Of a stretch of 64,000 nucleotides of DNA, positions 1-59,793 are shown one piece after another (position 1 is the first letter of the stretch; each line of letters begins with the position of its first letter). Under the pieces are notes generated by a model. The model was not told where the DNA came from and ran no database searches. It worked only from the letters and a program-made list of their open reading frames with translations. The translations under genes and the position numbers were made by a program. This stretch comes from an uncultured Actinomycetes bacterium (GTDB lineage Bacteria > Actinomycetota > Thermoleophilia > Gaiellales > Gaiellaceae). The stretch spans positions 160,100 through 224,099 of the forward strand of contig CAWHYL010000003.1 in NCBI GenBank assembly GCA_963833655.1, given 5' to 3'.

Positions 1-492
1 GAGAACGCCGAGAAGGTGGGCCTCCGGAAGGTGATCGGCGAAGACATGGTCAAGGTCGTCGTCAAGGCACTGACCGGCGGCGGCACGCAGATGCCGAAGA
101 ACTGGAACCGGCGCTTCAAGCACAACCGCGACAAGATGAAGACCGGCGACATCCTCGAGCTCGCGGAGGTCGTCCGGAACCTGTCGCTGCGCGACCACGA
201 GAAGGGCCTGTCCACCGGCGAGAAGCAGATGTTCGTGAAGGCGAAGAAGATCCTCGCCAGCGAGCTGATGTACGCCAAGGACATGGACGAGGAGGAGGCC
301 GCCGAGTGGCTCGACGGCGTCCTCGTCTCGAGCGCGAACGGCACGGCGAACGGTCGCAAGACGACGGCGAAGCCGGCAAAGGTTGCGTCGAAGACGACCG
401 CGGCCAAGCCCGCGGCAGCTCGCAAGCCGGCCGCGCGGAAGGCCCCGGCGAAGCCCGCACCGAAGACGAAGGCGCGCAGCGCCTCGAGGTGA
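1..492 (+). CDS. carD: CarD/CdnL-family RNA-polymerase-binding regulator, 5' end cut by the window edge, with a Lys/Ala/Pro-rich basic C-terminal tail
   Basis: Reading frame of ORF 16..492 is open from base 1. C-terminal CarD-like motif RDHEKGLSTGEKQMFVKAKKIL. Lies upstream of ispD, as in many Gram-positive genomes. Confidence 0.85.
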   Translation, partial: ENAEKVGLRKVIGEDMVKVVVKALTGGGTQMPKNWNRRFKHNRDKMKTGDILELAEVVRNLSLRDHEKGLSTGEKQMFVKAKKILASELMYAKDMDEEEAAEWLDGVLVSSANGTANGRKTTAKPAKVASKTTAAKPAAARKPAARKAPAKPAPKTKARSASR

Positions 493-7698: not shown

Positions 7699-9069
<1,371 letters not shown>

Positions 9070-15652: not shown

Positions 15653-16690
15653 ATGGAACCCCGCGCCTTCATCGAGGAGGCGGAGGAGCTCGGAGAGCTC
15701 GAGGAGGAGATCCTCGAGGCCTACGCGCACGAGCACGAGCTGGAGGACGAGGAGATCGCCGCCCTCCGCGCCGAGCTCGAGGAGCGCGGCGTCGAGCTGA
15801 TCTCGGCACCCCACGCCGAGCCGGTCGTCCGTGCGACGGCTCCGGTGAGCGGCGCGACCGACAGCCTCACGCTCTTCATGAACGAGGCCGGCCGCTATCC
15901 GCTGCTCACCGCGGCGGAGGAGGTCGCGCTCGCGAAGCGCGTCGAGCGCGGCGACCTCGCGGCGAAGGAGCGGATGATCAACTCGAACCTGCGCCTCGTG
16001 GTCTCGATCGCCAAGCGCTACCAGGGCCACGGCCTGCAGCTCGGCGACCTGATCCAGGAGGGCGTGATCGGACTGAACCGCGCCGTCGAGAAGTTCGACT
16101 GGCGCAAGGGCTTCAAGTTCTCGACCTACGCCACCTGGTGGATTCGCCAGGCCTGCCAGCGTGCGGTCTCGAACCAGTCCGCGACGATCCGCGTTCCGAC
16201 GCACGTCCACGAGCGGCGCGTGAAGCTCAACCGTGCCCGCCAGCGGCTCCAGGCTGCGAGCGGCGACGAGCCGACGCAGGAGGAGCTCGCGAAGGCGACC
16301 GGTCTCGAGCTGCGCTACGTCGAGGAGGCGCTCGGTGCGGTCGAGGCGTCGGTCTCGCTCAACCAGGCGGTCGGCTCCGACGGCGAGGGCGAGCTCGGCG
16401 ATCTCTTCGCCGACCCGAACTCCGTCGACCCGGAGTCCGAGGCGGCCGAGGCGCTGCGTGCGCGCTCGGTGCGCGAGGCCGTCCGGAACCTGCCCGAGCG
16501 CGAGCGCCGCGTGCTGGAGCTCCGCTTCGGCTTCGACGGCGAGCCCACGTCGCTCGAGCAGATCGGCCGCGAGCTGAAGATCAGCCGCGAGCGTGTGCGG
16601 CAGGTCGAGCGCGACGCTCTCGCAGCGCTCGAGATGCAGTTGGCCGACGTCGTCGCCATCTCCGGCGACGATCTCGTCCACGCGGCTTAG
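15653..16690 (+). CDS. RNA polymerase sigma-70 family factor, group 1/2 (RpoD/SigA-like), 345 aa
   Basis: Acidic N-terminus, then [43 protein letters not shown] and a region 4 helix-turn-helix [18 protein letters not shown]. Confidence 0.9.
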
Positions 16691-16707
16691 CCGCGCGGAC
16701 GGGGTAC

Positions 16708-16880
16708 CCGCTTCGCGGAGAAACGGGCGCGGGCTCAGCCCGCGCCCTTCTTTTCCGGGTGGCGATTCTCCTCTGCCGTGCGGCGTGCGCAGGCTGCGCG
16801 TGCGCGCGCCGCATCAGTTCGCCTGCGCGTAAGCCGCGCTTCGCGCTGGCTTACGCGCAGGCCTTGAGGGGTTTGAACCG
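16708..16880 (+). repeat. Structured intergenic repeat, copy A (three GC hairpins; family also at 19411-19557, 37785-37932 and 58071-58221)
   Basis: Shares CCGCTTCGCGG, GCGCGGGC-loop-GCCCGCGC, CCGTGCGGCG.GCGCAGGCTGCGCGTGCGCGCGCCGCATCAGTTCGCC, a variable stem and GGCCTTGA with the other copies. Confidence 0.8.
16725..16754 (+). terminator. Rho-independent terminator downstream of the sigma gene (also hairpin 1 of repeat copy A)
   Basis: Perfect 10-bp stem GGGCGCGGGC / GCCCGCGCCC with a 3-nt loop, followed by TTCTTTTCC. Confidence 0.6.
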
Positions 16881-16924
16881 AACGCGTCTTTTCAAGCGTT
16901 GACGGCGGTACTCTGGGCGTCAGC

Positions 16925-16997
16925 GCCGGAGTAGCTCAGCTGGTAGAGCAACGGTTTTGTAAACCGTGGGTCGTCGGTTCGAATCCGGCCTCCGGCT
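16925..16997 (+). tRNA. tRNA-Thr (anticodon TGT)
   Basis: Hand-folded cloverleaf. Acceptor GCCGGAG/CTCCGGC, D-arm GCTC-AGCTGGTA-GAGC, anticodon arm ACGGT-TTTGTAA-ACCGT, T-arm GTCGG-TTCGAAT-CCGGC. CCA is not encoded. Confidence 0.9.
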
Positions 16998-17007
16998 CCT
17001 GAGATGC

Positions 17008-19410: not shown

Positions 19411-19557
19411 GAAGGCCGGAGGCTAAGCCGGGCTTAGCCGGAGGCGAACTGATGCGACGCGCGCACGCGCAGCCTGCGCGCGCCGCACGGAAGAAAACAA
19501 CCGCCCACCACCACGAGAGCGCGCGGGCTTTGCCCGCGCGCGTTCCCCGCGAAGCGG
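19411..19557 (-). repeat. Structured intergenic repeat, copy B (reverse orientation)
   Basis: The reverse complement aligns over its whole length with copies A and D and keeps all three hairpins. Confidence 0.8.
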
Positions 19558-19569
19558 CGTACCTAGACG

Positions 19570-19634
19570 CTTGTGGGTCTGGCCCGCAGGGCCAGACCCA
19601 CAAGAAGAAGACCGCCGGGGGAGCGGCGGTCTTC
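19570..19634 (-). terminator. Two adjacent perfect hairpins (16-bp and 11-bp stems); candidate terminator of the signalling operon
   Basis: CTTGTGGGTCTGGCCC-GCA-GGGCCAGACCCACAAG (19570-19604) and GAAGACCGCCG-GGGGAG-CGGCGGTCTTC (19607-19634). On the minus strand the second is followed by TTCTT. Confidence 0.45.
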
Positions 19635-27309: not shown

Positions 27310-32382
<5,073 letters not shown>

Positions 32383-32398
32383 TCCTTTGTGCGAGGTA

Positions 32399-32414
32399 GG
32401 TCCACCGGTGGACC
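32399..32414. promoter_or_regulatory. Perfect 16-bp palindrome just upstream of the signalling operon start
   Basis: GGTCCACCGGTGGACC lies 17 nt upstream of the GTG at 32382, or 23 nt upstream of the better-spaced TTG at 32376. Confidence 0.3.
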
Positions 32415-32468
32415 GTTGGGCGACGTCTTCCCGGCTAGGAGGGGCCTTCGCCCCCGGACGCGCGAATC

Positions 32469-33437
32469 TTACTTGTGTGCAGGGAAATCGAGGGCCTGAT
32501 TCAGGTCCGCCCAGAGCTCCTCGGGTGACTCGAGACCGACGCTGAGCCGGAGCAGTCCGGCCGGCACGCGCTTTGGCTCCCAGCGGGCGCGGGACTCCAG
32601 GACCGAGTGCACCCCGCCGAGGCTCGTCGCATTGGCGATCACGTGCAGCGACGTCTCGACGTGCCGCGCCGCGTCGGCGTCGGCGACGTCGAACGACAGC
32701 AGCCCACCGATCCCCGCATAGCGGACGGTCTGCACCGCCCGGTGCTCACGCAGCCGCCGCGCCAGCTCCGTCGCCGTCTCCGTCTGGCGGCGGACGCGCA
32801 CCTCGAGCGTCTTCAGCCCTCGAAGGAGCAGGTACGCCGGATCCGGCGCTGCGGCGATGCCCGTGCGCGTGCGGAGCTGGTGCAGCCGCTCCGCGTCCTC
32901 GTCGCGCTTGCAGACGACGGCGCCGAGCAGGGCGTCGTCGTGGCCGGCCAGGTACTTGGTCGCGCTGTGCAGAACGAAGTCGGCGCCGTGCTCGAGCGGC
33001 CGCAGGTAGACGGGCGTCGCGGCCGTCGCGTCCACGAGCACCCGCGCCGGGTGGGCGGCTGCCGCTTCCAGATCGGGCATCGTCAAGAACGGGTTCGAGG
33101 GCGCCTCGAGCCACACGAAGTCGGCGCCCTCGGGCGGGGGCCCGGTCTGGTCGAACTCGACGTAGCGAAGGCCCCAGCGCTCGAGCTCCCCGAAGAGGAC
33201 GCTCGTCCCGAAGTACGCGCCCTCGGCGAGGGCGATCGTGGCTCCGGGCGAGAGGAAGGCGAGGACGACGGCCGTCGCCGCGCCGGTGCCCGACGAGAAG
33301 AGCAGCGCGCTTCCGCCGTCGAGCCGGCCGAGCTCGCGCTCCGCCTCGGCGCCGGTGGGATGGCCGTCCCGCTGGTAGTAGAAGGGGCCCGGCGTCCCCT
33401 CGCGATACGGCCAGATCGTGGCGCGGTCGACGCTCAC
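32469..33437 (-). CDS. Cys/Met-metabolism PLP-dependent enzyme (cystathionine gamma-synthase/beta-lyase family), short form
   Basis: ORF 32469..33437 shows SSGTGA, DATAATP, the PLP-lysine motif [10 protein letters not shown] and LGGV.S. Confidence 0.85.
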
Positions 33438-37720: not shown

Positions 37721-37727
37721 AAAGACA

Positions 37728-37755
37728 GGGTCTGACCCCTGCGGGGTCAGACCCC
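37728..37755. repeat. Pair of GGGGTCWGACCCC palindromic units (REP-like)
   Basis: GGGTCTGACCCC-TGC-GGGGTCAGACCCC starts 8 nt after the pccB stop. Related pairs lie at 43063, 55764 and 58222. Confidence 0.8.
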
Positions 37756-37784: not shown

Positions 37785-37932
37785 AAAGGCCTTCGGCCAA
37801 GCGACGCTTAGCCGAAGGCGAACTGATGCGACGCGAGCACGCGCAGCCTGCTCGCGCCGCACGGAAGCGGTCAACCGCCCAGCACCGCTAGAGCGCGCGG
37901 GCTCTGCCCGCGCGCGTTTCACCGCGCAGCGG
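37785..37932 (-). repeat. Structured intergenic repeat, copy C (reverse orientation); its 5' end overlaps the stop of the GGDEF/HD-GYP gene
   Basis: The reverse complement aligns with copies A, B and D. Stem 2 carries a compensatory C-G to A-T change and stem 3 has a different sequence but still pairs. Confidence 0.8.
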
Positions 37933-39754
37933 CGACCAGTTCTCGTCGCGGAACCGCAGGTTTCGCGACGACATCGATGACGCCAAGCTCCTCCGTGAAC
38001 GCCGCGACGATCGTGGGGTCGAACTGGGTGCCCGCGCAACGGTGCACCTCAGCCAAGGCCGCCTGCGGAGAGCGCTTCGCGCGGTAGCTGCGATCCGACG
38101 TCATCGCGTCATACGCGTCCGTGACGAAGATGATCCGTGCGCCGATGGGGATCTGCTCGCCGGCGAGGCCGTCGGGATAGCCGAGGCCGTCCCAGCGCTC
38201 GTGATGGCGGAGCACGAGCTCGGCCACAGGGTCGACGCCGAGGCTGTCCAACATCCTGAACCCGATCTGCGGATGACGCTGGAGCACGAGCCGCTCCGAG
38301 TCCGTCAGCGCACCCGGCTTGCGGAGAAGCTCCTCCGGGATCGCGAGCTTGCCGAGGTCGTGCAGCTGCCCGGCGAGCCGGATCAGCTCGACCTGCTCGG
38401 GATCGAGGCCGACACGCTTCGCGACACGCGCCGCGAGGTCGCCGACGCGGTCCGAATGATCCCCCGTGTATGTGTCGCGGGCATCGACGGCCTGCGCCAG
38501 CGACGCCGCGGCGCGATAGCGCGCGGCCTTGTCCGGGCCGGCAGCGAGACGCTTGAGCTCCGCAAGTTCGACGACCGCGGGCCGATACAGCCGCACGCGG
38601 TTCTTCCCGTGCTCCTTCGCCCAGTAAAGCGCGCTGTCCGCGAGGCGGATCAGCTCGTCACGGCCGTGTCCCTGCACGGGGAACGTGGCGAGCCCCGCGC
38701 TGACCGTGGCGTGGCCCACGTGCTCGAGGTCCAGCGACGCGATCCGCTCGACTACCGAATTCGCAGCGGTGAGCGCGGTCGCCTCGTCGTGGTCGGCCAG
38801 CAGCAGCGCGAACTCGTCGCCGCCCAGCCGGAACGCCTCGCCGCCCTGGCGCAGCCGTCCCGCCACCTGCGAGAGCACGCGGTCGCCGGAGGGGTGGCCG
38901 AAGCGGTCGTTGATCCTCTTGAAGTCGTCGATGTCGACGAAGCACAACGTCAGCGGCACGCGCTCCTCCTCGGCGCGCAGCAGCTCGCGCTGCAGGCGCT
39001 CGTGGAAGTGGCGGTGGTTGCCGAGGCCGGTGAGCGGATCCGTCAGCGCGAGCCGCATCGCGCGCAGCTCGCGATGTGTCGACCGCTGGTAGAAGGAGAT
39101 CGCGAGCAGCGGGCCGATCAGGGCGAGCGCGAGCACAGGCGAGCGCTGCCAGAGCACGACGAGCATCAGCGCCGCCGACGCCATGAACGCGAACGGCGTG
39201 ATCGTCGCGCGCAGGTTCGCGGGGACGAGCCGCTTGTAGCGCTGGCCCGTGCTCAGCGCGATCGCACCCGAGATGAAGAGGATGTTCACGACCGAGTTCG
39301 CGGTCGCGGCGATCAACACGGCGCCGATCAACCCGCCGACGGTGTCCTTGTCGATCGGCAGGATCAGCAGCCCTGCCGTGAGCGCGACGATGGCCATCAC
39401 CGCGACGTTGAACGCGATGCGCTCGAACGGGCGGTGCTGTGCCCCGTGGATGACACCGGTCGCCACGAGCAGGAGCAACGCGCCTGCGGCCCAGCCGTAC
39501 AGCACGATCGCGGCGACGGCGAAGACGAACGTCAACGAGACGACGCCGCCGCTCCCCTCCGCGTTGATCGGGACCGGGAACCGCTCGGCGAGCGTGGCCG
39601 CTGCCGTCAGCGCGACGAGCGAGACGAGCGTGCGCCAGCTGTGCGCCGTGGTGGCGAACTCGTACGCGGCTGCAATCAGGATCGCGAGCCCGGCCGCGCA
39701 GACCGGTGCGATCAGGAGAGAGAGCCGGCGGGGCGTGACCGCCTGTGCGCTCAC
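37919..39754 (-). CDS. Membrane sensor with GGDEF diguanylate cyclase and HD-GYP phosphodiesterase domains
   Basis: ORF 37919..39754 has about 7 TM segments, then DPLTGLGNHR, RLGGDEFALLL, HDLGKLAIP and HHERWDGLGYP. Confidence 0.88.
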   Translation of the reverse strand: MSAQAVTPRRLSLLIAPVCAAGLAILIAAAYEFATTAHSWRTLVSLVALTAAATLAERFPVPINAEGSGGVVSLTFVFAVAAIVLYGWAAGALLLLVATGVIHGAQHRPFERIAFNVAVMAIVALTAGLLILPIDKDTVGGLIGAVLIAATANSVVNILFISGAIALSTGQRYKRLVPANLRATITPFAFMASAALMLVVLWQRSPVLALALIGPLLAISFYQRSTHRELRAMRLALTDPLTGLGNHRHFHERLQRELLRAEEERVPLTLCFVDIDDFKRINDRFGHPSGDRVLSQVAGRLRQGGEAFRLGGDEFALLLADHDEATALTAANSVVERIASLDLEHVGHATVSAGLATFPVQGHGRDELIRLADSALYWAKEHGKNRVRLYRPAVVELAELKRLAAGPDKAARYRAAASLAQAVDARDTYTGDHSDRVGDLAARVAKRVGLDPEQVELIRLAGQLHDLGKLAIPEELLRKPGALTDSERLVLQRHPQIGFRMLDSLGVDPVAELVLRHHERWDGLGYPDGLAGEQIPIGARIIFVTDAYDAMTSDRSYRAKRSPQAALAEVHRCAGTQFDPTIVAAFTEELGVIDVVAKPAVPRRELVAAAR

Positions 39755-41686: not shown

Positions 41687-43441
41687 GTGGCCGCCTTCAG
41701 CAAAGTGCTGGTCGCCAACCGGGGCGAGATCGCGATCCGCGTGTTCCGCACGCTGCGCGAGCTCGGCATCGGCACCGTCGCTGTTTACGCCGAGGCCGAC
41801 CGCAGCTCCGCGCACGCCGCCTACGCCGAGGAGGCCTACGCGCTCGAGAGCTACCTGAACGTCGACGAGCTGCTCGCGGCGGCGCGCCGCGCGGGTGCGG
41901 AGGCGATTCACCCAGGTTACGGCTTCCTTGCCGAGAACGCGCCGTTCGCGCGTGCCTGCCTCGATGCGGGCATCGTCTGGATCGGCCCACCGCCCGACGC
42001 GATCGAGGCGATGGGGTCGAAGATCGAGGCGCGCGAGCGGATGCGCGCCGCGGGCGTGCCGATCGTCCCCGGCGTGACCGAGGCGGTGACGTCGGCCGAC
42101 GAGGTGCGCCGGCTCGGCGACGAGCTCGGCTGGCCGATCGCGATCAAGGCGTCGGCCGGCGGCGGCGGCAAAGGACTGAAGGTCGTGCGCAGCGCCGAGG
42201 AGGCGGGGCGCGCGCTCGAGTCGGCGCAGCGCGAGGGCGAGGCGTACTTCTCGGACGCGGCGGTGTACGTCGAGCGGTATCTCGAGGACCCGCGCCACGT
42301 GGAGGTGCAGGTGCTCGCCGACTCCACCGGCAACGTCATCCACCTCGGCGAGCGCGACTGCACGATCCAGCGCCGGCATCAGAAGCTCGTCGAGGAGACG
42401 CCGTCACCGGCGGTCGACGGCGAGCTCCGCGAGCGCATCGGCGCGATCGCCGTCGACGCCGCGCGCGCGGTCGGCTACCAGAGCGCCGGGACGATCGAGG
42501 GCCTGCTCTCGCGCGACGGCGAGTACTTCTTCCTCGAGATGAACACGCGCATCCAGGTGGAGCACACGGTGACCGAGCTCGTGACCGGGCTCGACCTCGT
42601 CCGCGAACAGGTGCTGATCGCCGCCGGTGAGCCGCTCTCGCTGCGGCAGGAGGACGTCCGCCTGAACGGGCACGCGATCGAGTGCCGGATCAACGCCGAG
42701 GACGTCGGCAACGGCTTCCTCCCGGCGCCGGGCACGATCACCGCGTACCGCGAGCCGAGCGGGCCCGGAGTCCGCGTCGATTCCGGCGTCGTCGCAGGCA
42801 GCGAGATCTCGCCGCTCTACGACCCGATGATCGCGAAGCTCGTCGTGCACGGCGTCGACCGTGAGCACGCGCGCCGGCGCATGCTGCGCGCGCTCGACGA
42901 GCTCGTCGTCGGCGGGGTGAAGACGCTGATCGGGTTTCACAAGGCGCTGCTCACGCACCCGTGCTTCATCGAGGGAGAGACGTGCCACGGCCTCGTCGAG
43001 TCCGAGCTCATGGCGGCGCGCGCAGCCGAGCTCGAGAACGGGCTCGCGAAAACCGAAGGGCTGGGGTCAGACCCCTATCGGGGTCAGACCCCCGCAGTTC
43101 GGGTTGTCGAAGTCGAGGGGAAACGCTTCGAGGTCCGCGTGCTCCGTCCCGAACCGCCCTGGGCCGAGCTCGCCCGGCGACGGCACGAGCGCAAGCGCGC
43201 GCGTGCCGGCGGCGGCGCCGGCAAGGACGCGGTCGTCAGCCCGATGCAGGGAACCGTGCTCGCGGTCGAGGTCGCAGAGGGCGACGAGGTGCAGGCGGGT
43301 CAGGTCATCTGCATCGTCGAGGCGATGAAGATGGAGAACGAGGTACATGCGCATCGCGCCGGCCGCGTCGCCGAGCTGTCGGTCGCGCCGGGGCAGCCGG
43401 TCAAGACGGGGCAGGTCGTCTGCGTCGTCAGCGGCGACTAG
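41687..43441 (+). CDS. Acetyl/propionyl-CoA carboxylase alpha subunit (biotin carboxylase plus C-terminal biotinyl carrier domain)
   Basis: In-frame GTG 41687. Shows KVLVANRGEIAIR, ATP-grasp GGGGKG, EMNTRIQVEH and the biotinylation motif EAMKMENEV. Confidence 0.92.
   Translation: MAAFSKVLVANRGEIAIRVFRTLRELGIGTVAVYAEADRSSAHAAYAEEAYALESYLNVDELLAAARRAGAEAIHPGYGFLAENAPFARACLDAGIVWIGPPPDAIEAMGSKIEARERMRAAGVPIVPGVTEAVTSADEVRRLGDELGWPIAIKASAGGGGKGLKVVRSAEEAGRALESAQREGEAYFSDAAVYVERYLEDPRHVEVQVLADSTGNVIHLGERDCTIQRRHQKLVEETPSPAVDGELRERIGAIAVDAARAVGYQSAGTIEGLLSRDGEYFFLEMNTRIQVEHTVTELVTGLDLVREQVLIAAGEPLSLRQEDVRLNGHAIECRINAEDVGNGFLPAPGTITAYREPSGPGVRVDSGVVAGSEISPLYDPMIAKLVVHGVDREHARRRMLRALDELVVGGVKTLIGFHKALLTHPCFIEGETCHGLVESELMAARAAELENGLAKTEGLGSDPYRGQTPAVRVVEVEGKRFEVRVLRPEPPWAELARRRHERKRARAGGGAGKDAVVSPMQGTVLAVEVAEGDEVQAGQVICIVEAMKMENEVHAHRAGRVAELSVAPGQPVKTGQVVCVVSGD
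43063..43093. repeat. GGGGTCAGACCCC pair located inside the carboxylase coding sequence
   Basis: GGGGTCAGACCCC-TATC-GGGGTCAGACCCCC followed by GCAGTTCG, the same module as the intergenic pairs. Translated in frame as GLGSDPYRGQTPAV. Confidence 0.8.
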
Positions 43442-54838: not shown

Positions 54839-55726
54839 TCACGTCGTCTTGCGCCGTCCGTGCGGGTGCGCCTGGAAGTACAACTCCCGACGACGCCGAT
54901 CGGATACGTGGGTGTACAGCTCGGTCGTCGCGAGGTCCGCGTGGCCGAGCATCTCCTGCACCGAGCGCAGGTCGGCGCCACCTTCGAGCAGGTGTGTGGC
55001 GAACGAGTGCCGCAGCAGATGCGGATGGACGCGCTCCGGCTCCAGCCCGGCCTTCGCGGCGAGCCGGCGCAGGATCAGGAACGCGCCGGCGCGCGTGAGG
55101 CCGCCGCCCTTCGCGTTCAGGAACAGCTCCGGCCGGTGCCGCGCGTCGAGGAACGGCCGGCCGCGGGACAGGTAGCGGCGCAGCGCCTGCACCGCCTGGC
55201 GGCCGACCGGCACGACCCGCTCCTTGGAGCCTTTGCCGATGCAGCGGACGAGCCGGCCCTCGAGGTCGACGCTCGACTTGTCGAGCCCGACCGCCTCGCT
55301 GACGCGCAGGCCCGCGCCGTAGAGCAGCTCGACGAGCGCGCGGTCGCGGAGGTCGCGAGGCGTCGTGCCCGCTGCCGCCTCGACCAGGCGCTCCGCCTCT
55401 GCCGGCGACAGCGTGCGCGGCAGGGTGCGACGGCGGCGCGGGAGGTCCAGCTCGGCGGCCGGGTTGTCGGCGCGCGCGCCGAGCAGCATCTGGTGCCGGA
55501 AGAAGGAGCGGATCGCGGCGACGCGGCGGGCGATCGTCGCCGGCGAGCGGCCGGCCGCGCGCAGCTCCGCGAGGTAGCGCTCGAGCTGCTCGGTCGTGAT
55601 CTTGCCGATCGGCTCGCCGAACCATTCCCCGAGCGCCGCGAGGTCGCGCCGATACGCCTCGACCGTCTTCGGCGCGCGGCGGGTCGCGAGCAGCGCGAGA
55701 AAGCCTTCGACCTCGGGATCGACCAC
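54839..55726 (-). CDS. Tyrosine recombinase, XerC/XerD family
   Basis: ORF 54839..55726 shows the catalytic signature R...GKGSKER.VP...HPH.LRHSFATHLLEGGADLR.VQE.LGH....TT..YTH. Confidence 0.9.
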   Translation of the reverse strand: MVDPEVEGFLALLATRRAPKTVEAYRRDLAALGEWFGEPIGKITTEQLERYLAELRAAGRSPATIARRVAAIRSFFRHQMLLGARADNPAAELDLPRRRRTLPRTLSPAEAERLVEAAAGTTPRDLRDRALVELLYGAGLRVSEAVGLDKSSVDLEGRLVRCIGKGSKERVVPVGRQAVQALRRYLSRGRPFLDARHRPELFLNAKGGGLTRAGAFLILRRLAAKAGLEPERVHPHLLRHSFATHLLEGGADLRSVQEMLGHADLATTELYTHVSDRRRRELYFQAHPHGRRKTT

Positions 55727-55763: not shown

Positions 55764-55793
55764 GGGGTCTGACCCCGACAGGGGTCTGACCCC
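55764..55793. repeat. GGGGTCTGACCCC pair between the two recombinase genes
   Basis: GGGGTCTGACCCC-GACA-GGGGTCTGACCCC followed by AGCAGTTCG. Confidence 0.8.
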
Positions 55794-55815: not shown

Positions 55816-56661
55816 TCAGCTACGCGGGTGCGCGCGGTCGTAGACGCGCCGCAAGCGGCGGCCGTCCACGTGGCTGTACAGCTGCGTCGTCGAGAGCGAG
55901 CTGTGGCCGAGCAGCTCCTGGATCGTGCGCAGGTCGGCGCCGCCTTCGAGCAGGTGGGTGGCGAACGCGTGCCGCAGACGGTGCGGGTGCGCGAAGACGC
56001 GGCGCAGCGTCGAGGTGTCGAGCCGCTTCCCGCGGGCCGAGACGAACACGGCGTTCTCGGCGCCGCGCACGAGCTTCGGCCGCGTCTCGTGCAGGTAGCG
56101 CGCGAGCAGGTATGCCGCTTCCTCGCCGAGCGGGACGATCCGCTCCTTGCCGCCCTTGCCGCGGACGTGCAGCTGCTCGCGGTCGAAGTCGACGTCCGCG
56201 AGGTCGAGCCCGACGGCCTCCGACGAGCGCAGGCCGGCGGAATAGACGAGCTCGACGAGCGCCCGGTTCCGAACTGCCAGCGGTCCGTCGCCGGCGAGCG
56301 ACTCGAGCGCCGCCTCGACCTCTGCCGGTTTCGGGGTGTCGGGTAGGCGGCGCCGGCGGCGCGGCGCCAGCGCCGCGTCCGGAACGTTGGTCGGCCCCAG
56401 CGTGAAGCGAAGGAAGCTCCTGACGGCGGCGATCTTCCGGGCGATCGTCGCCGGCGCGAGCTTGCGCGGTCGTGCGCGTCCGAGCTCGGTGACGTACTGC
56501 ATCAAGACGCGCACATCGATATCGGCGAGCGTGAGCCTGCGGTCGTCGAGCCACCGGCCGAACTCCTCGACGTCGCCGCGGTACGAGCGCCGCGTCGCCT
56601 CGCCGAGCCGCGGCGAGTCGAGAAAGCGATCGATTTCGGCTTGCGCCCGCACGCCCACCAC
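55816..56661 (-). CDS. Tyrosine recombinase, XerC/XerD family (second, tandem copy)
   Basis: ORF 55816..56691. An internal GTG at 56661 is preferred because the longest start overlaps the divergent aminopeptidase start. Shows GKGGKERIVPLG, HRLRHAFATHLLEGGADLR and LGHSSLSTTQLYSH. Confidence 0.88.
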   Translation of the reverse strand: MVGVRAQAEIDRFLDSPRLGEATRRSYRGDVEEFGRWLDDRRLTLADIDVRVLMQYVTELGRARPRKLAPATIARKIAAVRSFLRFTLGPTNVPDAALAPRRRRRLPDTPKPAEVEAALESLAGDGPLAVRNRALVELVYSAGLRSSEAVGLDLADVDFDREQLHVRGKGGKERIVPLGEEAAYLLARYLHETRPKLVRGAENAVFVSARGKRLDTSTLRRVFAHPHRLRHAFATHLLEGGADLRTIQELLGHSSLSTTQLYSHVDGRRLRRVYDRAHPRS

Positions 56662-57883: not shown

Positions 57884-58070
57884 GCACCGCGCCGCCCGAG
57901 CGAGGTCTGCGGCTACCTCGCCCAGGCGGGCGCGATCTGGACTGCGGGACATTCACTGCGCTCCGGGCCAAAGGGGAGGACGGCCCGGGCGAGCGGCCCA
58001 CGCTCCCTACATCGGGTTAGGCCTCGCGGCCCCTGAGTCCCTCGTTCGAGGGACTCAGGAACTAGGTCCG

Positions 58071-58221
58071 CCGCTTCGCGGTGAACGCGCGCGGGCGGAG
58101 CCCGCGCGCTCTAGTGGTGCTTGGCGGCTGTTTCCTTCCGTGCGGCGCGCGCAGGCTGCGCGTGCGCGCGCCGCATCAGTTCGCCTGCGCGTAAGCCTGC
58201 GGCTTACGCTCCGGCCTTGAC
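58071..58221 (+). repeat. Structured intergenic repeat, copy D
   Basis: Aligns with copies A to C. Stem 2, GCGGCGCGCGCA / TGCGCGCGCCGC, is perfect. A GGGGTCTGACCC pair follows immediately. Confidence 0.8.
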
Positions 58222-58250
58222 GGGGTCTGACCCGCCAGGGGTCTGACCCC
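58222..58250. repeat. GGGGTCTGACCC(C) pair
   Basis: GGGGTCTGACCC-GCCA-GGGGTCTGACCCC ends 11 nt before the pckA stop. Confidence 0.8.
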
Positions 58251-58260
58251 GGCCTTTCGC

Positions 58261-59793
58261 CTACCGAACGGCTGCGACGATGTCTTCCGAGAGGCTCGGG
58301 AAAGCCTCCAAGAACTCCGAGCGCTCGCGCTTGAGCCGCTCGACGTGCGCCTCGTACTCGGCAACGCGGCCGGTTCGTGCGTAGAGCTTGCGCGGCTGCA
58401 GCACCTCCTCGTCGTCGATGCCCGGGACCGACGACGCGACGAAGTAGCCGAAGTCGGGATCGCGCTCCCACTCGATCGTGCCTTCGGCGATGCCTTTGAC
58501 GATCGCGGACGAGTGCTTGATGCGCACCTTCTTCGAGCGCTCCTCCTCGTCGCCGCCGCCGACGCGGCCGGTGTTCAGGATGAACACCTCGAGCGGGTGC
58601 ACCTCGAGCAGCTCGAGGAAGCGGTTGCCCTGCAGGTCGTGCGGCATCGGGAAGAACGGGTTCGTTCCGGGCACGCGGAGCGCCTTGCCGATCTCGTCCA
58701 CGCCGCCGGCCGCCGTTCCCTTCGTCTCGCCGAGCATGAAGAAGGCCGCTGCCTGCGGTCCCTCGAGCTTCGCGACTGCGGGAATGACGTTGTCGTTCTT
58801 GTTCAGGACGAGCAGGAAGTCGGCGCCGTCGATCTCTCGGTCGGCCGCAGACTCGATCACGTCGAACGAGAACGTCGCCCGGCCGTTCTGCGTGTAGCTC
58901 TCGTCGTAGAAGTCGACCTCGTCGCCGTGCTGCGACACGTTCTCGAGGTAGGAGTCCGGCTGCGTGACCGCGCCGTAGACCGTCGGCTCGTCCTGCGGGT
59001 TCAGCCCATAGGTCTTCGCGAAGCAGCCGTTCTCGGTGACGTAGATGCGGCCGTCGGACATCCACGCGACGAAGTCGTCCTGCACCGGCAGCGAGCCGTT
59101 CTGGCGCGTGAACGTCGTCGTCGTCTTCCCCGTGCCGGAGAGACCGACGGTGAGGCAGACCTTGTCGCCGGTCGCGGTCGGGATGATCTTGCAGCCGGCG
59201 TGCAGCGGCAGCCCGCCGCGGTCGTAGACGAGCTTGTTCCACATCCGCAGCCCGCCCTTCTTCGACTCGCCGAAGTAGTCGGAGTTGAAGACGCGCGTGA
59301 CGCCCTGCTCGAGGTCGACCATGATCAGCCGGTCGTCCGGGAAGCCCTCGGCCTTCAGGTTCGGCGTGTAGACGACGGTCAGCTCCGGCTCGAAGTCGTC
59401 TTCCGGCGGTCCGAAATAGAGCTCCTGCTGCATCCCCGCGATGTTCGCGTTCGCAGCCTCGACGAAGAGGCGCGCCGGCGTGCGGAACTCGGGGTCGTTG
59501 CCGATGTAGCCGTCGATCTGGACCATCTCCTGGTCCGCGATGTACGCGTCCTGGAGCTCGGCCCACTTCGCGCCTTCGTCGGTCGGGATCGACTGGTTCT
59601 GACCGTCAGGCTCGTCGGTGACCAGGTAGGTCGAGCCCTTCGAGCGTGCCAGCACCTTCGTCTGCACGTTGAGGTTGCCGTACTTCGTCGGGCGCGCGGT
59701 GCGCATCTTCGCGGCGAGCTCCTTGACCTCCTCAGGGCTGGGATTCGCGATGACGCGCTTTGCCTGCGGAAGCCGGAACAGCATTTTCGCCAC
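58261..59793 (-). CDS. pckA: Phosphoenolpyruvate carboxykinase (ATP type)
   Basis: In-frame GTG 59793 (SD GAGAGGAG upstream) or ATG 59784. Shows the kinase-1a loop GLSGTGKTT, DDFVAW and GCFAK. Confidence 0.9.
   Translation of the reverse strand: MAKMLFRLPQAKRVIANPSPEEVKELAAKMRTARPTKYGNLNVQTKVLARSKGSTYLVTDEPDGQNQSIPTDEGAKWAELQDAYIADQEMVQIDGYIGNDPEFRTPARLFVEAANANIAGMQQELYFGPPEDDFEPELTVVYTPNLKAEGFPDDRLIMVDLEQGVTRVFNSDYFGESKKGGLRMWNKLVYDRGGLPLHAGCKIIPTATGDKVCLTVGLSGTGKTTTTFTRQNGSLPVQDDFVAWMSDGRIYVTENGCFAKTYGLNPQDEPTVYGAVTQPDSYLENVSQHGDEVDFYDESYTQNGRATFSFDVIESAADREIDGADFLLVLNKNDNVIPAVAKLEGPQAAAFFMLGETKGTAAGGVDEIGKALRVPGTNPFFPMPHDLQGNRFLELLEVHPLEVFILNTGRVGGGDEEERSKKVRIKHSSAIVKGIAEGTIEWERDPDFGYFVASSVPGIDDEEVLQPRKLYARTGRVAEYEAHVERLKRERSEFLEAFPSLSEDIVAAVR

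Follow-up and report, generated by a model that had tools for sequence, protein, structure and literature searches.

How does a hairpin-rich repeat of some 150 nucleotides (nt) come to stand again and again at the ends of unrelated genes, and what keeps it there? The question is raised by a window of 64,000 nt (the whole stretch of DNA analysed here: contig CAWHYL010000003.1 of assembly GCA_963833655.1, positions 160,100 to 224,099, with a G+C content of 70%) from an uncultured member of the Gaiellaceae, in which a first-pass annotation had described four such copies and had read them as a transcribed 3' untranslated region (UTR) RNA structure rather than a DNA site. The copies are present where it placed them and have the order of modules that it gave, and our re-analysis redrew the bounds of their cores to 16701-16865 on the forward strand (copy A), 19412-19566 and 37786-37940 on the reverse strand (copies B and C) and 58060-58218 on the forward strand (copy D). 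A profile of the family scores the four at E values of 1e-33 to 1e-40, the next best match in the window has an E value of 0.02, and the anchor GCATCAGTTCGCC occurs exactly four times; there are no further copies in the window. The four are members of a family that has not been described before: mosaic and highly structured repeats found between the genes of soil Gaiellaceae and related Actinomycetota. Gaiellales are abundant, little-cultured soil Actinomycetota, and to our knowledge their non-coding biology is almost undescribed; the family is dense in this genome region, with four copies in 64 kb.

A fold maintained by selection at individual loci

The family was analysed with a profile hidden Markov model and by explicit counting of base pairs. 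A strict search pattern recovered 8 loci in species-representative genomes, all of them Gaiellaceae or unclassified Actinomycetota metagenome-assembled genomes (MAGs); a looser pattern recovered at least 120 metagenome loci, with about 100 true members among the matches listed; and a profile search over all the locus DNA examined returned 131 matches. The pattern scans together yielded at least about 125 relatives. Every named record that carries the family is a Gaiellaceae or unclassified Actinomycetota MAG, the others being metagenome contigs, and the named homologues of the window's sigma-factor protein are annotated as Gaiellaceae MAG proteins. Many of the metagenome contigs break off inside or beside a copy, which is the expected behaviour of a multicopy repeat. 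Comparison with Rfam, as the first-pass annotation had proposed, matched the element to no family: a tRNA is the sole match to Rfam 15 in the whole window at gathering score, and copy D, searched at E values up to 10, yielded only four hits, attributable to chance, which scored 9-19 bits where the gathering scores are 45-74. A blastn search of a plasmid collection found no match to the element, a scan of viral contigs gave one chance hit, inside a coding region, and we found nothing relevant in the literature on Gaiella repeats or actinobacterial REP-like elements.

A unit begins with a 5' hairpin at or over a gene end. A G-rich linker, with GGTAC as its last bases, leads to the core, which is about 165 nt long and contains hairpins P0 to P3, and a separate GC-rich terminator-like hairpin often follows on the 3' side. 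The motif between the 5' hairpin and P0 varies (GGGTAC, GGGAAC, GGGGAC, GGTTC and GGTCC all occur). Non-orthologous copies share about 200 nt, from the start of a family-wide 5' hairpin that we call hairpin X to GGCC, with four to five different hairpins. Even the closest of them are only 93-95% identical, which indicates that the family is old and has had no recent burst; paralogues within a genome are 80-89% identical, and all keep the fold.

Covariation, which the first-pass annotation had named as a check on its reading, is strong. In an alignment of 83 sequences, standard pairs fill 98.3% of the cells of the four hairpins, and double changes affect 18 of the 37 pairs (205 cells). In 500 column shuffles the observed covariation was never reached, and sliding the partners by 1-3 columns lowers the score 4-9 times. 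P2, for instance, takes the forms GCGCGCA/TGCGCGC, GCGGCGA/TCGCCGC, GCGAACA/TGTTCGC, GCGGCCA/TGGCCGC and GTGTCGA/TCGACAC. Two such differences had been noticed at first pass within the window and are borne out: hairpin 3 is unlike in sequence in copies A and C and paired in both, and hairpin 2 of copy C carries a C-G to A-T double change. For copy D together with the hairpins that flank it (233 nt), the predicted folding energy is -155 kcal/mol, a z score of -8.4 relative to dinucleotide shuffles. The invariance of CCGTGCGGCG and CATCAGTTCGCC carries little meaning, since both were fixed by the search patterns; in a diverged orthologous copy at locus L137, found by synteny, the two are slightly altered, and P2 and P3 are re-paired.

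Many element loci are orthologous between contigs, and the covariation is maintained there. Across 19 orthologous comparisons, the paired positions hold 42 compensatory double changes, 6 wobble changes and 19 disruptive changes. The rate of change is 7.9% per paired site versus 21% per unpaired site, so that stems evolve 2.7 times more slowly, and the identity of the core between orthologues (0.76-0.93) is about equal to that of flanking coding sequence. Because compensatory changes exceed disruptive ones at orthologous sites, the fold must be selected where each copy sits, that is, it is under purifying selection at individual loci, and what is selected is a structured element rather than a duplex DNA site. 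An open reading frame (ORF) on the reverse strand, starting from the ATG of GAACTGATGCG, was considered and rejected: insertions and deletions are non-multiples of three, and the stem changes are compensatory, not synonymous.

These rates bear directly on the possibility that the copies are decaying relics of a selfish, non-autonomous transposon, devoid of host function and alike only by common descent. Relics would fit the insertion polymorphism, internal deletions and truncated pieces described below, as well as the mosaic architecture with other repeats nested inside and the heterogeneity of the host genes. They fit poorly, however, with stem changes between orthologues that number 42 compensatory and 19 disruptive, with a rate of change 2.7 times lower in stems than in loops, with within-genome paralogues that always keep the fold at 80-89% identity, and with the lack of any sign of recent bursts. 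We consider this explanation quite improbable.

Gene-end position and the active strand

About 80-90% of the copies lie just 3' of a gene that runs in the same direction. When neighbouring genes were called conservatively on the basis of G+C content at third codon positions (GC3), 85 of the 102 callable copies had a co-oriented gene as their upstream neighbour, and the core most often begins 29-35 nt past the stop codon of that gene, a distance equal to the length of hairpin X. In most of the apparent exceptions a small ORF had been missed or a co-oriented terminator lies nearby; genuine ones exist, for example at L014 and L054, beside gene starts. Among the loci examined, convergent gaps hold the element in 44 of 94 cases, tandem gaps in 26 of 360 and divergent gaps in 1 of 81. 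The random orientation that would have counted against the first-pass reading is thus not seen, polarity being tied to the flanking gene, though in the convergent gaps where most copies lie this is automatic. In tandem gaps, 20 copies are co-oriented and 10 anti-oriented by the conservative calls, or roughly 20 versus 3-6 after inspection, a bias that is real but moderate. A more liberal GC3-based re-call of the neighbouring genes was not relied on, as antisense frames can pass its filter. Within the window, the claim that a copy always lies just 3' of a co-oriented gene stands for copy A, whose core begins 10 nt past the stop codon of a sigma-factor gene, and for copy C; it is loose for copy B, with a LuxR-type gene ending about 260 nt upstream, and for copy D, about 180 nt before which an M29 aminopeptidase gene ends.

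The 73 non-redundant upstream genes fall into 64 Pfam families; no tie to one gene family or to a transposase was found, and the 25 families listed for them include no transposase. TAG is the stop codon adjoining the 5' end in 49 of 74 cases, versus 39% in the background (Fisher p = 1.6e-5); 0-10 variable nt often lie between the stop and hairpin X, and copies beside gene starts lack the TAG. The consensus of an intrinsic terminator is matched by P1 of copy A and by P3 and the 3' module of copy C, on the element's own strand only; no match falls within the elements of copies B and D.

The explanation we favour, to which we give about even credence, is that the element was once mobile and is now a selected 3'-UTR module, a stack of stable hairpins that caps the ends of genes. 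According to this reading, a non-autonomous mobile unit would have inserted at the extreme 3' ends of genes, leaving neither inverted termini nor duplications, and its old copies would now be held in place by selection. Most probably, each copy is transcribed together with the gene that reads into it and forms the 3' UTR of that gene, transcribed 3'-UTR RNA being the most likely identity of the element. The hairpin stack would then serve as a transcript 3'-end module, an exonuclease barrier and/or a terminator, acting between closely packed, mostly convergent genes and possibly bound by a specific factor. Given the strong conservation and the selection on the fold at single loci, the module is probably useful to many unrelated genes.

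Which strand is the active one is a more difficult matter. The gene strand is predicted to fold better in 72 of the 83 copies (-90.6 versus -84.8 kcal/mol), and in a candidate extra helix, Px, G·U alternates with A-U and U·G with C-G on that strand. Several observations nevertheless weigh against a transcribed module. The better fold of the gene strand derives in part from its G+T-rich composition. Among the consensus pairs of 114 members, read on the gene strand, there are 41 A·C and 19 G·U mismatches (21 versus 14 when counted by column), which places the wobbles on the opposite strand; the signature of RNA pairing, with G·U tolerated and A·C avoided on the sense strand, is not seen. At the apices of X, P0, P2 and P3 the gene strand has the sequence GC-TNC-GC, in which each of the four bases occurs as N. 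The opposite strand there carries GCGNAGC, the consensus of a DNA mini-hairpin that is extraordinarily stable, much more so than its RNA counterpart (PMC13037366). The linkers are strongly conserved in sequence, which a simple barrier role leaves unexplained. Finally, the co-orientation is automatic in the gaps that hold most copies and only moderate in tandem gaps, no mobilising enzyme was found, and near-identical paralogues are not seen, the best pairs being 93-95% identical. The first-pass argument for RNA, that every mismatch is a G-U wobble when the element is read in gene orientation, therefore fails across the family, and it fails in the window as well, where hairpin 3 of copies B and D has a 3x3 internal loop with T/C mismatches. 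What survives of its conclusion is a structured, covarying element with gene-tied polarity; what does not is the wobble proof of the RNA strand.

An alternative is that the active form is single-stranded DNA, probably the anti-gene strand, recognised by a primase, a replication factor or an HUH enzyme such as an IS200/IS605 TnpA or a REP-associated RAYT, with the gene polarity arising from strand-specific insertion or use instead of transcription. Three to four apices per element match the DNA mini-hairpin consensus GCGNAGC exactly on the opposite strand (PMC13037366), and the predominance of A·C over G·U on the gene strand points the same way, as do the lack of inverted termini and target duplications and the presence of hairpins at both ends, as in IS200/IS605-derived elements. 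The excess of TAG at the 5' end also hints at a short target motif. Yet compensatory evolution at old loci is unexpected for transposon ends that no longer move, conservation spans the whole 165 nt and not just the ends, and the sequence abutting the 5' end is not constant, given the variable nt between stop and hairpin X. In addition, the A·C excess weakens when counted by column, and neither a Y1/HUH transposase nor TnpB is among the 25 families listed for the upstream genes. We regard this alternative as rather unlikely, though by no means negligible.

The opposite strand could also be active as an independent small-RNA gene whose terminal hairpin is antisense to the last codons and stop of the neighbour. 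Its larger share of wobble-compatible mismatches and the complementarity of the 5' hairpin to the end of the coding sequence would be in keeping with such a gene, but no promoter-like site was found on either strand of any of the four window copies, the convergent gaps are usually too tight for a promoter, and the fold of the opposite strand is the poorer one. A small RNA of this kind is very improbable.

Inverted copies of gene ends and a probable mobile past

The 3'-UTR module favoured above begins at the gene end with a fifth hairpin. Between gene end and core, a hairpin of at least 8 base pairs (bp) is present in 70 of 74 non-redundant copies with an adjacent stop, and hairpins of this size occur at the stop of 75% of element-adjacent genes, versus 3.2% of 507 element-free ends and 0.6% of gene ends in a shuffled control. 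In 44 of the 70 it is hairpin X, CCGAGCGAAAGC-ttc-GCTTTCGCTCGG, whose outer pairs covary and which begins at or just past the stop and, in the loci examined, never occurs without at least a partial core. The remaining 26 are locus-specific palindromes, in which the last 9-15 nt of the gene itself form the 5' arm and recur, inverted, as the 3' arm. In 10 of these 26 the axis of the palindrome lies -0.5 to +1.5 nt from the first base of the stop (binomial test about 1e-7 for 10 of 25, one mis-assigned locus being left out).

Four independent comparisons show that the 5' arm belongs to the gene from the outset and that the element brings the 3' arm with it. At the sigma-factor gene, the window and L129 carry the inverted copy and core between the stop and a tRNA-Thr gene; in L138, with the same synteny, the stop is followed directly by a native hairpin and the tRNA, and the inverted copy is absent from the other element-free orthologues, L133, L134 and L137, as well. 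In the second case (L047 versus L095), two convergent stops abut in the empty site. The third case is a gene whose orthologues differ: the L056 version carries a perfect 13-bp palindrome of ...ACCACCGCGCGC-TAG, those of L011 and L098 have hairpin X, and those of L087 and L123 pair over just 4 bp. In the fourth, GGDEF/HD orthologous proteins end in ...PALAS without the element and in ...PAVPRRELVAA(A/S)R with it, the added tail being encoded by the 3' arm and P0 (GCC GCT TCG CGG = AASR). In GGDEF/HD-domain proteins of several related genomes (P0122, P0126, P0132 and P0174) the element is translated as a C-terminal tail ...PAVPRRE(L/A)(V/Y)AA(A/S)R, the window does the same at 37919-37969, and L141 retains the coding part of the element only, that is, the 5' hairpin and P0. 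The rewriting of protein C-termini by the element ('...AASR' tails in GGDEF/HD orthologues) is relevant to annotation.

Targeting of pre-existing terminator hairpins is an unlikely origin for these palindromes, because only 3.2% of element-free stops have such a hairpin and the 3' arm is missing from empty sites. Sensing of the stop codon by translation was also considered; the GGDEF/HD site, where the palindrome lies inside the reading frame and the protein tail has been replaced, speaks against it. It is more likely that the axis marks the insertion junction and that selection keeps junctions at or near the stop. The inverted copy may have arisen during integration, through fold-back or template-switch synthesis, or at a later time, when template switching 'perfected' a quasi-palindrome. 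A tentative proposal, which we hold well short of conviction, is that integration itself copies 9-15 nt of the left flank in inverted form (a 'target-site inverted duplication'), thereby building a hairpin from host codons, and that selection leaves those insertions with their axis at the stop. We know of no bacterial repeat or transposon family that makes inverted-flank junctions of this sort. If the proposal is correct, integration would proceed by fold-back or template switching, for example by a reverse transcriptase or polymerase, and the family would represent a new kind of domesticated gene-end module. The host-templated junction palindrome is the most unusual feature of the element, and such palindromes may reveal an undescribed mechanism of insertion or palindrome formation.

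Insertion polymorphism is evident from orthologous sites that exist in both filled and empty form. No target-site duplications were found in four filled/empty comparisons (L047/L095, L115-L113/L116, L057/L017 and window-L129/L138), and terminal inverted repeats are likewise missing: when the 5' 50 nt were compared with the reverse complement of the 3' 50 nt in 102 copies, the best local match scored 6.9 versus 5.8 for shuffled sequence. The classical miniature inverted-repeat transposable element (MITE) that the first-pass annotation had held out as contrary evidence is therefore not what these copies are. Internal deletions and truncated pieces are present at L129 (a remnant of P2), L141 (hairpin and P0), L013, L057, L081 and L122. 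Pieces consisting of hairpin X and P0, or reaching to the P1 loop, stand in tandem directly 5' of a full copy at L013 1131-1230, L057 about 100-170 (reverse complement), L081 1248-1360 and L122 138-200; their break points recur immediately after GCTTCG and GGGCTCG, which suggests repeated insertion or slippage there. By context, no autonomous tnpA/tnpB relative with the same ends was apparent in about 0.8 Mb of loci, in which no aimed search was made.

Other repeats contribute to the mosaic. A second repeat, GGGGTCTGACCCC-N3-4-GGGGTC(T/A)GACCCC followed by a short T-rich tail, is found in copies C and D. It is a doublet of the near-palindrome GGGGTCTGACCCC followed by AGCCTTTCG or AGCAGTTCG, with 19 matches versus 1.5 expected; it folds as a terminator-like hairpin and serves as a module of copies B, C and D. 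The same repeat stands alone in intergenic positions at 43064-43091 (reverse strand) and 55765-55792 (forward strand), and in L137 it is placed after the sigma gene. A metagenome sub-family (L013, L014, L025, L038, L054, L070, L072, L096, L111, L120 and L123) carries an extension of about 130 nt 3' of the core, bounded by inverted repeats GGACGTGTC...GACACGTCC, with 2-5 tandem 11-nt GGACATGTCY units and an end near a GGGTCTGACCCC motif. This extension probably represents a small inverted-repeat element in its own right, nested at the core's 3' end; a sigma-54 promoter considered within it (TGGCAC...TTGC) was rejected, its spacing being wrong by eye. A related GACATGTC hairpin lies 5' of the tRNA-Thr gene in L129 and L138 and beside the truncated copy in L141.

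A conserved, multi-hairpin stretch of about 150 nt, at the end of an element without inverted repeats and with a variable flank after it, also recalls the guide-RNA scaffolds of mobile elements (the omega RNA of TnpB/IscB or the bridge RNA of IS110), in which case the copies would be protein-less derivatives. We think this extremely unlikely: many copies are followed by a fixed repeat rather than a unique flank, Rfam gave no match even at E values up to 10, and the 25 families listed for the upstream genes include none of TnpB type, so that no copy was seen at the 3' end of such a gene.

The window copies and their relation to known repeats

Beyond what it described, the first-pass annotation missed the large, mosaic, formerly mobile family, the 5' hairpin at the gene end and the 3' terminator-like repeat of copies C and D. 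The 5' hairpin of copy A (16676-16700, forward strand) is GTCCACGCGGCT-T-AGCCGCGCGGAC, its 5' arm being the final codons of the sigma-factor gene and its 3' arm their inverted copy, with the stop TAG (16688-16690) on the axis. The core then runs through GGGGTAC, P0 (16708-16718), P1 (16725-16747), P2 (16778-16814), CATCAGTTCGCC (16812-16823), P3 (16821-16862) and the terminal GGCCTT, and the tRNA-Thr gene (16925-16999) lies 3' of it. In three of the orthologous loci the sigma gene is followed by a convergent gene of the PDDEXK_5 nuclease family (L133 10313-10795, L134 10894-11355 and L137 11098-11565); in the window (16700-17000) and L129 the repeat and tRNA-Thr stand in its place, a presence/absence difference within conserved synteny.

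On the reverse strand, the 5' hairpin of copy B (19573-19601) is GTGGGTCTGGCCC-tgc-GGGCCAGACCCAC, a variant of the GGGTCTGACCC repeat, and comes directly after an intrinsic terminator (19607-19634); the core (19412-19566) extends from CTAGGTAC to GGCCTT. Its neighbours are a short unannotated stretch with its own terminator on one side and an MMPL gene on the other. At the orthologous site, L137 has a diverged full copy, L129 a 50-nt remnant, and L133 and L134 nothing. Copy C, on the same strand, has its 5' hairpin (37945-37969; GTCGCGAAACC-tgc-GGTTCCGCGAC) within the 3' end of the GGDEF/HD reading frame, the stop TGA of which (37919-37921) lies in the P0-P1 linker, and its 3' module (37727-37755; GGGGTCTGACCCC-gca-GGGGTCAGACCC then GTCTTTCT) is a terminator-like hairpin of the second repeat family. 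For copy D, on the forward strand, the corresponding parts are the 5' hairpin CCTGAGTCCCTCG-ttc-GAGGGACTCAGG (58032-58059), the core from AACTAGGTCC to GGCCTT (58060-58218) and the 3' module GGGGTCTGACCC-gcca-GGGGTCTGACCCC then GGCCTTTCGC (58222-58260), which adjoins the stop (CTA, 58261-58263) of a convergent PEPCK gene.

The window holds other repeats of a different nature. A long run with a period of 9 nt, rich in GGC/GGG (7700-8730), is consistent with a collagen-like Gly-X-Y coding repeat. An ORF of about 1800 codons (27310-32745, reverse strand) includes six tandem 276-nt units that are 77-80% identical (30295-31974) and correspond to a 92-residue repeat domain of a very large protein. 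A 166-nt direct repeat, 76% identical (54862-55027 and 55824-55989), falls in two adjacent genes on the same strand, which are probably tandem paralogues.

An attractive aspect of the family is that it offers an easily modelled target for the mining of metatranscriptomes and for reporter tests of 3'-end stabilisation and termination in high-GC bacteria. Its place among known elements is best described by what it shares with each. By their defining features it is not a REP (unit size, GTAG), a classical MITE, a group II intron or a member of any Rfam family. The protein-less palindrome-associated transposable elements (PATEs) derived from IS200/IS605, with their single-strand 'peel and paste' mechanism, share its lack of inverted termini and duplications, its subterminal hairpins and its strand-specific orientation, and PATE-like insertion beside a short motif would explain the co-orientation with the stop codon used. 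Unlike PATEs, the family has a 5' flank that is not constant, an interior that is conserved and selected throughout, old copies, and no TnpA/TnpB family among those listed for the upstream genes. Class C group II introns likewise insert just 3' of hairpins or terminators, sense to the upstream gene, but the element has no intron domains (Rfam intron models gave no match), is only about 165 nt long and brings with it the 3' arm of the upstream hairpin, which does not pre-exist. Like the attC sites of integrons, which fold as bottom-strand single-stranded DNA, it conserves its structure and lies directly 3' of a co-oriented gene; unlike them, it is dispersed instead of arranged in cassette arrays, has several hairpins in place of one imperfect one, is strongly conserved in primary sequence, and shows no RYYYAAC/GTTRRRY boxes in its core consensus by eye, no formal search having been made.

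More is shared with the structured repeats of other bacteria. The ERIC/IRU, BOX, RUP, Correia/NEMIS and bcr1 repeats are, like this family, 100-200 nt long, intergenic and stable in predicted fold; they lie in intergenic regions that are transcribed and can supply stops or terminators, and some ERIC/BOX-type repeats are reported to have orientation-dependent effects on neighbouring mRNAs. No sequence relation to them was found in the Rfam, phage and plasmid searches, the inverted termini and target duplications of Correia, RUP and bcr1 are absent from the Gaiellaceae element, and we know of no ERIC/BOX-type repeat with an inverted copy of its host flank. The RAYT-associated REP/BIME repeats of proteobacteria differ in having a unit that is a palindrome of 20-40 nt, as against 165-230 nt with four to six distinct hairpins here, and in their conserved GTAG, in place of which this family has a variable GGTAC-like motif. 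Also unlike REP, it shows no alternating orientation, is conserved across species rather than species-specific, and takes its 5' hairpin from host coding sequence; a RAYT gene was not identified, and none of the 25 Pfam families listed for the upstream genes, 73 in number, is a Y1 transposase family. Nevertheless, REP/BIME and ERIC-like structured intergenic repeats are the closest known kind: REP/BIME, too, are abundant extragenic GC-rich hairpins that form mosaics with other motifs, favour gene 3' ends and convergent gaps, lack inverted termini and target duplications, and have been proposed to act as mRNA 3' stabilisers or terminators, the role proposed here for the repeats of the Gaiellaceae.

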